Below, piece after piece: positions 12,001-15,000 of a DNA stretch of 63,788 nucleotides. Each line of letters opens with the position of its first letter. Position 1 is the stretch's first letter. Position numbers: made by a program. Source of the stretch: an uncultured Chthoniobacterales bacterium (GTDB taxonomy: Bacteria > Verrucomicrobiota > Verrucomicrobiia > Chthoniobacterales > JAATET01); contig CAXTSM010000008.1 in the NCBI GenBank assembly GCA_964247025.1, forward strand, positions 44,970 through 108,757. Direction: 5' to 3'.

Positions 12001-15000
12001 TCCGCCGGCTGCCGGCGGGGCTGTGGCTGCTCGGAGCCCCGGTGCTGGCCCTCTACGTCCTGCTGGTGCATTGGATCATGGGCATCGAGATCGACTACCG
12101 AAGCCGCGTGGGCGCGGGCCTTGCGCTCTATCACGGCACGGGCCTCGTCGTGCATGCGGCGGTGACGATCGGCGAAAATTGCGTGCTGCGAAACGGCGTG
12201 ACGATCGGCGAACGCCTCCGGGACGGTGGATGCCCGACGCTGGCCGATGGCGTGGAGACGGGCGTGAACGCGGTGATCCTCGGCCCCGTGACAATCGGCG
12301 CGGGAGCGGTCGTCGGCGCGGGCGCCGTGGTGCTGCGCGACGTCGAGCCCGGCAGCGTCGTGGCCGGCAATCCGGCCGTGTTCATCAAATGGCGCGATTC
12401 CACGGGCCCGGCTTGACGTGAAGTTTTGCTTCCTTTCGAGCCATGCGCATCTCGCGCTCGATCCGACGGCGGACCGCGTTTCCGGCGGCGCGGAGTTGCA
12501 GGTCGCCCTGCTCGCGCGGGAACTCGCGCGCCGCGGGCACGAGGCCGTGATCATCGGAGGAGATCTCGGCCAGGCGGACGGGATCGTTTTCGAGGGCGTG
12601 AAGACGCGCAACGGCGGCTCCTTCCAGACGGGCGCGGCGCTCGATACGTGGCGGGCCCTCCCGCGGGTGCGGCGGATCCTGGCGGAAGAGCGTCCCGATT
12701 ACGCCCTCGTGCTGGGCTGGACGAGTTGGCTGTATTTCCTGCGTTTCCTGCGGCCGACCGGGTGCGGCATCGTTTTCATTTGCGGCCTCGACACCGAGGT
12801 GAACGGGGAGTTTCGGCGGGAGCATCCGGTTCGTGGGACGCTGTTCGAGGCGGGGGTGCGTGGCGCGGACCGTCGGTTTGCAATGACCGAATACCAGGCG
12901 GGTGAATTTGCGCGGCAGGGTCTCGACCGCGGGCTGTACCGTAATCTCATCCTTCCCCGCGCCGCGCCGCGGGCGGCGGGAAAGACCATCGATCTCCTGT
13001 GGGTGGCCCGCTGTCAGCCGATCAAGCGGCCGCTCTTGTTTCTCGACCTTGTCGCGCGATGCCCGGACGCCCGGTGCCGGATGATTTGTCCGCGCGAGGA
13101 TGCGGTGCTCTGGGAGCAGGTGGCGGGGCGGGCGAGCGGGATGGCGAACCTCGAGTTCATCGAACGGGTGCCCTACCGTGAGGTCCAGGCGCATTACGAT
13201 GCATCCGAGACTTTCGTGAACACGTCCACCTTCGAGGGCTGGCCGAACAGCTTCATTCAGGCCGGGCTCGGGGGGGCGGGGCTGCTTTCGCTGGACGTCA
13301 ACCCGGACCGCCTTTTCGAGCGGTTTTCGCCGGGAATCTTTTGCGCCGGCGATTTCGAGACGATGGTCCGCGGCGCGGAATCGCTGCGGATAAATCGCGG
13401 CCGGCGGGAGGATGCGCAACGGGGTTGCGCTCGATTCGTCGCGGAACTGCACGACAACGACCGCAACGTGGACGCCTTTCTCGCGGGGCTTTGATTTCGC
13501 AGCTCCCGCGATCGTCGCCGCGCCTGGCCGGGAAGCATCTTCCCGGCCTTCTTATTTTTCCGGGGCGCGGTGGCTTTGCATCCAGCTCCAGACGATGTGG
13601 GACGAGATCGCGTAGTTCCAGACCGCCCCGATGCCCGCGCCGATGGCGCCCGCGAGCCACCACGCCACCTGGTGCTCGTTGAGAGACGCCGCCACGCGCA
13701 CGTTGACGCCGGCGCCGACGCCGCAGATCGCGAGATAGGCGGCCGCGCCGAACGCCATGGGCATCCCGCGGAGTCGTTGCGGGCGAAAGGTCACGGAATT
13801 ATTGACGAAAAAATTCGAGATCATCGCGACGATGGTGGCGACGCTCTGGGCGACGACGAAACTCACCCCGAAATGGCGGAACATGATCCCGAGCGCGGCG
13901 AGATGCAAAACGAGGCCGCTGCATCCGACCGCGCCGTAGATGACGAAGTCGACGGGAAGATATTTCCCGAAACGTTTGTCGGCGAGCAGGTGCAGATATT
14001 CCAGCGTGGCGATGACGTCCAATTTGCTTTCGCCGTGCAGTCGGGCGCGGAATTCGTAGGCGACATCCGCGACGCGCGGGCGGGTCGGGGCGGAGAGGAC
14101 GAGGTCGAGCAGGATCTTGAATCCGCGCCCGCTCAGTCCCGCGGCGGCGCGCTCGAACAATCCGCGCCGCAGCATGAAAAAACCGCTCATGGGATCCGAC
14201 AACCCCGAACGCACGAAAAGTTTTTCCAGCCATGTGGCGACGCGGCTGATGAGGATCCGGGCTCCCTTCCATTCGCCCACGCTGCCGCCGGGAACATAGC
14301 GGGTGCCCACGACCAGGTCGAGGTCCGCCTCCGCGCGCAAGCGCTCCAGCATTCGCGGCAGCAGGGTCTCGTCGTGCTGGAGATCGGCGTCCATCACCGC
14401 AAGGAAATCGGCGCCGCTGGAGGCCATGCCCTCGATGCACGCCGAAGAAAGTCCGCGCCGTCCGAGCCGGGAGAGAAAACGAACGGGAAGCCCCTCGTCG
14501 GCGAGCCGCATGATTTCCTCGATCGTGCCGTCCCGAGAGTCGTCGTCCACGAACACCGCCTCCCACCGGACGCCGCCCAGGCAGTCGTTCAAACGGGCGG
14601 CGAGCGGCGCGATATTTTCCCGCTCGCGGAGGGTGGGGATGACGATGGTGAGCTCGGGACGCATGGAGTGAGGCGCCGCCGGGAGACCGGTCGCGCATCG
14701 TCGAAGTAAAGCGAAGTCCGAAAACGCCGTCGAACAGAAGTCTCGCCGCGATGCCGCGGCGCCCGATCACGGAATGAAGTAGAACGGATTCGGCAATTTC
14801 ACGCGGTTCCGCGCATAGCCGCCCTCGAGGTCGCTGTCCTGATCGCCGACGTTGAGCAACGTGTAGGCAATATACCAGGAATCTGCTAGAGTTACAGCCA
14901 TGAAGGCTGCCGGCAGGAAACCCAAGAAGAAAATGCCCACAGCCTACAGTTACATTCGTTTTTCTACCCCCGATCAAGCCAAAGGAGACTCATTCCGCCG

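Follow-up and report, generated by a model that had tools for sequence, protein, structure and literature searches.

A 63,788-nucleotide stretch of the genome of an uncultured Chthoniobacterales bacterium (contig CAXTSM010000008.1 of assembly GCA_964247025.1; hereafter, the window) holds an integrated island of 26,588 bp at positions 14857-41444. It lies inside a gene for a HAD-IIIB acid phosphatase (PF03767), 29 codons ahead of the stop. We consider it highly probable that the island is an integrative element, which entered by integrase-mediated insertion with the dinucleotide AG as the crossover. Mobile elements of this kind are ordinary, but two details of this one are unusual. Its integrase lacks the zinc ligands of its class, and the element brings a spare copy of the gene that it interrupts.

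The limits of the island follow from its composition, from empty sites in relatives and from the reading frame of the host gene. Its guanine plus cytosine (GC) content is 0.519, against 0.681 in the left flank and 0.662 in the right flank. More precisely, the GC profile changes from 0.64-0.72 to about 0.50 exactly at the inverted-repeat arms described below, and then goes back up. A composition so far from that of the host argues for a recent arrival.

The host gene is on the minus strand and now consists of two pieces. The 5' part (41445-42022) has 192 codons plus 2 bases. The 3' part (14767-14856) has the last base of a leucine codon, 28 codons and the stop, and it contains the GDQxSD motif. 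The interrupted 5' open reading frame (ORF; 41435-42022, minus strand) runs on into the P arm of the element, where it finds a stop at 41435-41437. It matches profile positions 74-201 of the 230 in PF03767. Read on the minus strand, the 5' piece closes with the first two bases of the leucine codon, and the 3' piece goes on in frame as NVGDQDSDLEGGYARNRVKLPNPFYFIP-stop. Joining the flanks therefore restores the reading frame, as a preliminary description of this DNA had claimed for the attachment site attB. The rejoined gene would read ...GACGTTG-AG-GATGATG... across the site. The insertion deprives the host enzyme of its last 29 codons, GDQxSD motif included.

Two attachment (att) sites bound the island. 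The attL site (14829-14882) consists of the B arm (14829-14854), the AG (14855-14856) and the P' arm (14857-14882), in which the inverted-repeat arm occupies 14861-14882. Where the B arm ends on its outer side is nominal; it was given 26 nt by analogy with the P arms. The attR site (41419-41472) consists of the P arm (41419-41444, inverted-repeat arm at 41419-41440), the second copy of the AG (41445-41446) and the B' arm (41447-41472). The left junction reads ...GATCGCCGACGTTG-AG-CAAC-GTGTAGGCAATATACCAGG..., and the right junction reads ...CCTGGTATATTGACTACAC-CATG-AG-GATGATGTCGTAGCC.... The core common to both is TGAG, at 14853-14856 and 41443-41446. With the ends of the circular element joined, the attP that we infer is ...CTACACCATG-AG-CAACGTGTAG....

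The 19-nt arm has exactly two copies in the window, inverted and with 1 mismatch, which agrees with the 18/19 match given in the preliminary description. Two arm matches appeared in none of 100 dinucleotide-preserving shuffles. A repeat search lengthens the arms to 22 nt (14861-14882 and 41419-41440), with 20/22 positions complementary (91%). There are 239 inverted pairs between 14000 and 42500, and of the 25 longest this one is the most complementary. On either side, the inverted arms are 4 nt from the AG. The perfect local palindrome that had been described at the left junction, ACGTTG-AG-CAACGT, is also present in the sequence. It means that the six innermost bases of the B arm are those of P'.

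Serine integrases exchange strands at a central dinucleotide. The half-sites P and P' match at 22/26 positions about AG, at 6/26 about GA and at 5/26 about TG. Only AG gives a symmetric attP, and the earlier placement of the dyad on the AG within the shared TGAG is thus confirmed. The attB is less symmetric than attP, since B and B' match at 7/26 positions. Centred on AG, the inner 12 nt of the attB and attP arms agree at 24/48 positions, a score reached by 0.5% of 20,000 random host-flank 62-mers. Likewise, both attB arms repeat the outer motif of attP, 6 bp closer to the centre (24/52), a score reached by 4% of the background when the best of 14 shifts is taken. The position windows for these two comparisons were picked after the sites were seen, so their statistics are post hoc and supportive only.

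Empty sites were obtained from relatives. We searched the right flank in 41 genomes (the window genome, G000, and 40 relatives), and 12 matched, G000 among them. Eleven relative loci were fetched. Seven of them hold the acid phosphatase gene (L005-L011; L010 comes from the unpublished genome G004), and the other four are short unrelated matches. The gene is uninterrupted in all seven. The base aligned to 14856 directly adjoins the base aligned to 41447, and positions 14855-14856 and 41445-41446 align to one and the same AG. At the junction, the relatives present TTCAG followed by GAT (three loci), TTGAG followed by GAT or AAG (two loci), and TTTAG followed by AAT or GAT (two loci). With BLAST, both flanks were contiguous in 6 of the 7, and L008 ends 26 nt left of the junction. 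The preliminary description had named a different junction in empty-site relatives as the result that would speak against it; the seven gene-holding loci are instead continuous at the predicted junction, with AG. Altogether, attP and attB are a sound predicted pair for an uncharacterised integrase.

The presumed agent of the insertion is encoded next to the left arm. A gene at 14900-16732 (plus strand) begins 18 nt inside that arm and stays open over 610 codons. Its product has 610 amino acids, or 599 from the second methionine. Pfam finds a Resolvase domain (PF00239; E 2.6e-15, 57.2 bits for a cut-off of 23.3) and a Recombinase domain at residues 201-299 (PF07508; E 1.6e-11, 44.7 bits for a cut-off of 21.1). 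The catalytic motifs are Y18-x-R20-x-S22 and D98-R99-x-x-R102. In two alignments R20, S22, D98, R99 and R102 are invariant. Y18 is invariant in one of them (A3) and nearly so in the other (A1).

An AlphaFold2 model built from an 11-sequence alignment has a mean predicted local distance difference test (pLDDT) score of 74.6. It presents beta strands at 319-364, long helices at 391-422 and 429-466, and further beta strands past residue 500. Residues from about 391 to 466 are predicted to form a coiled coil. The best Foldseek matches are full-length complexes of serine integrases with att sites. The first is 9dxh (E 4e-17), and PhiC31, Bxb1 and LI (4kis) follow. The matches to 9dxh, 9tep (E 2.8e-13) and 9iu2 (E 7.1e-9) cover nearly the whole model. 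VIA-align gives Z 14-15 across model residues 10-560. In the catalytic domain, 3guv scores Z 14.1 and the corresponding domain of TP901-1 scores Z 13.1. The C-terminal regions of 4kis_B, Bxb1 and PhiC31 align to model residues 167-560 with Z 11-13, where pLDDT is only 39-78 over 301-350. Domains, conserved catalytic residues and predicted fold bear out the earlier assignment of 14900-16732 as a large serine recombinase. That this recombinase made the insertion, and that it cuts at AG, is what the sequence suggests.

The integrase is remote from characterised enzymes. A phmmer search of the PDB gave no chain at E 0.01, and a profile search gave only coiled-coil and weak resolvase matches. The closest among 5.8 billion proteins (P0002) has 60% identity by BLASTP (62% in MAFFT alignments), and the next has 46%. 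Full-length relatives from alignment-based searches reach 45-46% at best. Across 400 more genomes of the phylum, identity over most of the query is 40% at best, with 53-55% only on two short fragments. In 300 further genomes of the order, the best full-length match has 50%, and one 157-residue fragment has 71%. Genome and metagenome contig searches with the integrase as single query gave no match. The closest of 50,697 phage records are Burkholderia phage Bcep176 gp53 and the Bcep22 serine recombinase. These are also large serine recombinases, aligned over 70-74% of the query, but with only 29-31% identity. The window genome itself has a second large serine recombinase gene (G000:C13:65437-67176, minus strand; L002), with 34% identity and one in-frame TAA, and a short resolvase-domain match on contig C27 (L003).

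Related integrase genes with 45-46% identity are present in genomes labelled Verrucomicrobia, Chthoniobacterales and Terrimicrobiaceae. Upstream of them there is a P'-like arm with a common GGCAA...TCTGCTA pattern. The TCTGCTA follows the P' arm and precedes the integrase start codon (14883-14899 in the window), and it is kept in the window, L024 and L025. This motif may be a regulatory or an outer att element.

One of these relatives, L024, could be delimited completely (its other end is on L110, in one contig). This element has 19,040 bp and comes from the same order as the window genome. Its integrase is 45-50% identical to that of the window. As in the window element, the integrase gene is at the left end, there about 45 nt from the arm, and the arms are symmetric about a dinucleotide within the shared core. 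A gene is also disrupted. In L024 it encodes a response regulator, split in the receiver domain between ...DLQMPEMD and GIEATHEIRK..., whereas the window element has the acid phosphatase as its target. The shared core of L024 is GAT, and its arms match at 21/28 positions about AT versus 10/28 about GA. The putative central AT is palindromic and would give no polarity to the sites. From the centre to GGCAA there are 9 nt in both elements. The two islands also have in common an AAA ATPase (32% identity) and an SSB-like protein (43%). The same geometry and these common genes indicate a family of elements. There are differences in the organization. In L024 the AAA and SSB-like genes abut the P arm, while in the window element the SSB-like gene is separated from the P arm by about 12 kb of extra cargo. 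The 1.5 kb just inside the right end of L024 contain no copy of the target gene. For L025 and L023, the other end of the element was searched for and not found. On a metagenome contig, L148, positions 5992-7137 encode the first ~240 residues of a related integrase (61% identity), and the frame continues into aspartate-rich repeats of TSP3-like type. This element seems to be rearranged or decayed, and its upstream arm is like those of L088 and L023.

The first unusual detail concerns the ribbon domain. The Pfam scan gave no match of the window integrase to PF13408 (Zn_ribbon_recom). The relatives positive for PF13408 have four cysteine columns (C-x-x-C...C...C), and at these columns (about residues 320-360) the window integrase has D, H, S and S. 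The Listeria LI integrase holds its zinc with Cys274, 277, 302 and 314 (PMC3783163), and these four are the same D, H, S and S in the window enzyme. We counted the cysteines at the four columns in 121 sequences, the query and its 120 best database matches. There are none in 61, one in 14 and four in 46. The 13 nearest relatives of the query have zero of the four cysteines, and the first 57 have zero or one. The L024 integrase (P0003) also lacks all four. Because it flanks a precise insertion, the cysteine-less clade seems to work without zinc ligands.

The mechanism that we propose is modelled on established serine-integrase chemistry. Integrase dimers would bind the ~54-bp attP of the circular element, with the 26-nt arms P and P' around the AG. 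Dimers would also bind the less symmetric attB within the acid phosphatase gene. The attP and attB complexes would then synapse, and the four strands would be cut at the AG, leaving 2-nt overhangs. One half-site pair would turn 180 degrees before the ends are rejoined. The products would be attL (B-AG-P') and attR (P-AG-B').

The Listeria A118-type LI integrase (4kis) presents the domain order that is predicted for the window enzyme: resolvase, recombinase, ribbon domain and embedded coiled coil. Its chain B aligns to the model with VIA-align Z 12.1 over 279 residues (model 167-559, chain 134-454). The attP half-sites of LI have about 25-26 bp around the central dinucleotide, as here (PMC3783163). 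The same source describes an outer attP motif that is nearer the centre in attB, with a shift of 5 bp in LI and 6 bp here. However, the two enzymes have only 15% identity in the structural alignment, and the host phylum and the target gene differ. PhiC31, Bxb1 and the serine integrase of 9dxh/9y66 are the best structural matches, yet their Foldseek identity is 12-16%. These are phage-borne enzymes, whereas no phage structural gene was recognised in the scanned ORFs of the island (18 ORFs of at least 90 amino acids searched with Pfam, and 10 ORFs with PHROGs).

The integrase is thus a new, distant member of a known enzyme class, and the rebuilding of att sites is itself established practice. 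A catalogue of serine recombinases gives 6,207 unique recombinases with predicted att sites, obtained by comparing isolate genomes within species at 95% average nucleotide identity (PMC10083194). Its logic is the one followed here. Sequences with and without the insert are compared, attL and attR are converted into attP and attB, and the dinucleotide is placed in the shared centre. The catalogue takes its empty sites from within the species; on the other hand, ours come from other species.

Two other explanations of the junctions were considered. Strand exchange at TG or GA inside TGAG, instead of AG, is improbable. The three dinucleotides are all common to attL and attR, and the junctions alone cannot separate them. 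But with TG or GA as the centre, the symmetry of attP drops from 22/26 to 5-6/26. In 5 of the 7 relatives the empty site has TTCAG or TTTAG, so only AG is present in all seven, although none of these sites is a proven target. The dyad centre of L024, AT, is likewise at the 3' end of the shared core, with the spacing from GGCAA seen here. Still less credible, and in our view next to negligible, is a transposon origin, in which the ends would be terminal repeats and a transposase would have produced TGAG as a 4-bp target-site duplication. Inverted-repeat ends beside a short direct repeat would fit such an origin. With TGAG as the duplication, however, the repeats would start at unequal distances from the two ends, 4 nt and 2 nt, and a 2-bp crossover makes them symmetric. 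A fixed duplication length would not vary, whereas the shared core has 4 nt here and 3 nt (GAT) in L024, as expected from chance identity around a 2-bp crossover. There is no transposase family among the Pfam matches of the scanned island ORFs, and the gene next to the arm, 18 nt away, encodes a serine integrase.

Some observations weigh against insertion by a working integrase at this site. The empty sites come from other species, with 68-79% identity over the matched part of the right flank, so the attB of the strain itself is deduced by joining the flanks. The similarity statistics of the attB arms are post hoc, as stated above. The four zinc ligands are absent, while zinc is reported as needed for PhiC31 integrase (cited in PMC3783163). 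No excision factor was identified in the island. Neither a second copy of the element nor a full integrase above 62% identity was found in the 400 genomes of the phylum, the 300 of the order and the genome and metagenome collections, and repeated integration at this attB is therefore not supported. Finally, only two public runs (X1 and X2) have words in common with attL, and their shares of the sampled words are small, 0.11 and 0.07. Both were mapped on 4857-24856, a 20-kb piece with the left end of the island. No joint appeared, and an empty or circular site was not bridged by any contig. Read mining had been proposed for the circular attP and the empty attB, and neither was seen in these two low-share runs. 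The X1 run, a lichen metagenome, gave five perfect 151-nt contigs and one with a single difference, all in the host flank and each of one read length. One of the perfect contigs (14706-14856) has its last base at the junction base 14856, at a depth of about 2.6. The island had no cover in X1, but absent cover does not count as evidence, and we draw no conclusion from this run. From X2 came a single 268-nt contig (14841-15108), which includes 16 nt of flank and has 19 differences; the 13 listed are all at least 42 nt from a contig end.

These observations lead to a further possibility, that the insertion happened as described and the element is now a fixed relic, with its excision factor missing or its cysteine-less integrase impaired. 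We regard it as rather unlikely. It would agree with the absence of excised, circular or empty forms in the reads, with an element found only in this genome among all the genomes and metagenomes searched, and with the lost zinc ligands. The second recombinase gene of the same genome, with its in-frame TAA, indicates that such genes do decay here. Conversely, the integrase of the island is open over its 610 codons with invariant catalytic residues, and the arms differ at just 2/22 positions. The composition is still far from that of the host, pointing to recent arrival. The cysteine-less relatives are numerous (61/121) and one of them flanks another precise insertion, so the clade appears to work. 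For the integrative element that we favour, the chances of present-day activity are about even.

The second unusual detail is the spare target gene. At 40710-41366 (minus strand), the island encodes its own full-length HAD-IIIB acid phosphatase, which reaches profile position 230 of 230 in PF03767 (E 2.2e-33) and has a GC content of 0.518. The gene has the orientation of the host gene. Its start is 79 nt inside the attR junction, directly downstream of the truncated host gene. Its product has 73% identity with the host fragment, equal to that of the orthologue in a genome of the same genus (G003). The spare phosphatase probably compensates for the disrupted host enzyme, because the insertion strips the GDQxSD motif from the latter. 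A promoter and terminator scan of 40500-42300 found a single candidate of each kind, which does not exceed the count in shuffled sequence and is uninformative. We find it possible, with confidence a little short of even, that a sizeable clade has replaced all four zinc ligands yet makes precise insertions, and that this element also insures its host via the copy of the target gene, perhaps driven by the host promoter. Narrow word searches of the literature gave no paper on point for an acid phosphatase attB, cysteine-less ribbon domains or elements that copy their target gene.

Two other roles of the spare copy were examined. As a second attB it is an unlikely target, since at the equivalent position it has ...TTCAA followed by AAT, with AA at the centre versus the AG of the host, and many further differences in the flanks. 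Integration by homologous recombination with the island copy was also rejected; the junctions are outside the homologous sequence and there is no hybrid gene.

The remaining genes of the island form two groups. The integrase side (16.8-28.9 kb) encodes, all on the plus strand, an HNH endonuclease-like protein (16840-17400; Pfam and PHROGs), a weak ParA/MipZ-like P-loop protein (21354-22109), an AAA ATPase (22910-23764; Pfam), a RadC-like JAB domain protein (23764-24249; E 2.6e-33) and an SSB-like protein (28541-28909; Pfam). The P-loop protein matches MipZ with 21.3 bits for a cut-off of 20.7, is under the cut-off for ParA, and also has a PHROGs match. A DUF7453 protein is on this side too. 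The cargo found by Pfam comprises a LuxR-type response regulator (30262-30981, minus strand), a protein of 1067 amino acids with LamG and bacterial TSP3 repeats (31154-34357, plus strand) and an RHS/YD-repeat protein of 1729 amino acids (34369-39558, plus strand). The latter combines a C39 peptidase-like domain with an RHS core-end domain, and its C-terminal tail is variable. More precisely, it presents TPR repeats, the RHS core end ...DPLGL, and then a tail of about 150 amino acids with HELDH. An ORF at 39335-40042 (plus strand) overlaps the end of the RHS gene and could encode an immunity protein. Together they look like a polymorphic toxin cassette carried as cargo.

No capsid, terminase, portal or tail family is among the Pfam matches of the 18 ORFs, and the PHROGs search of 10 ORFs matched only HNH and ParA-like proteins. 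Relaxase and type IV secretion families are absent among the Pfam and NCBIfam matches, and large ORFs of 553, 493 and 281 amino acids have no family. Seven island ORFs have no match in Pfam, PHROGs or NCBIfam.

A verified att pair is what tests of a new integrase start from. As an att pair, this one is of modest scientific interest, since thousands have been predicted before. The integrase could be orthogonal to existing tools, because its closest phage counterpart has about 30% identity and the PDB gives no sequence match at E 0.01. The absent zinc ligands bear on whether it would work as a tool. For the biology of these elements, the spare target gene illustrates a way in which insertion into a gene may become less costly. 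If the cysteine-less clade indeed works, zinc would not be a general requirement of large serine recombinases. The clade is then a natural test of the role of the zinc site in DNA binding and directionality. Finally, the window and L024 elements document a family of mobile elements in a poorly studied order of soil- and lichen-associated bacteria.

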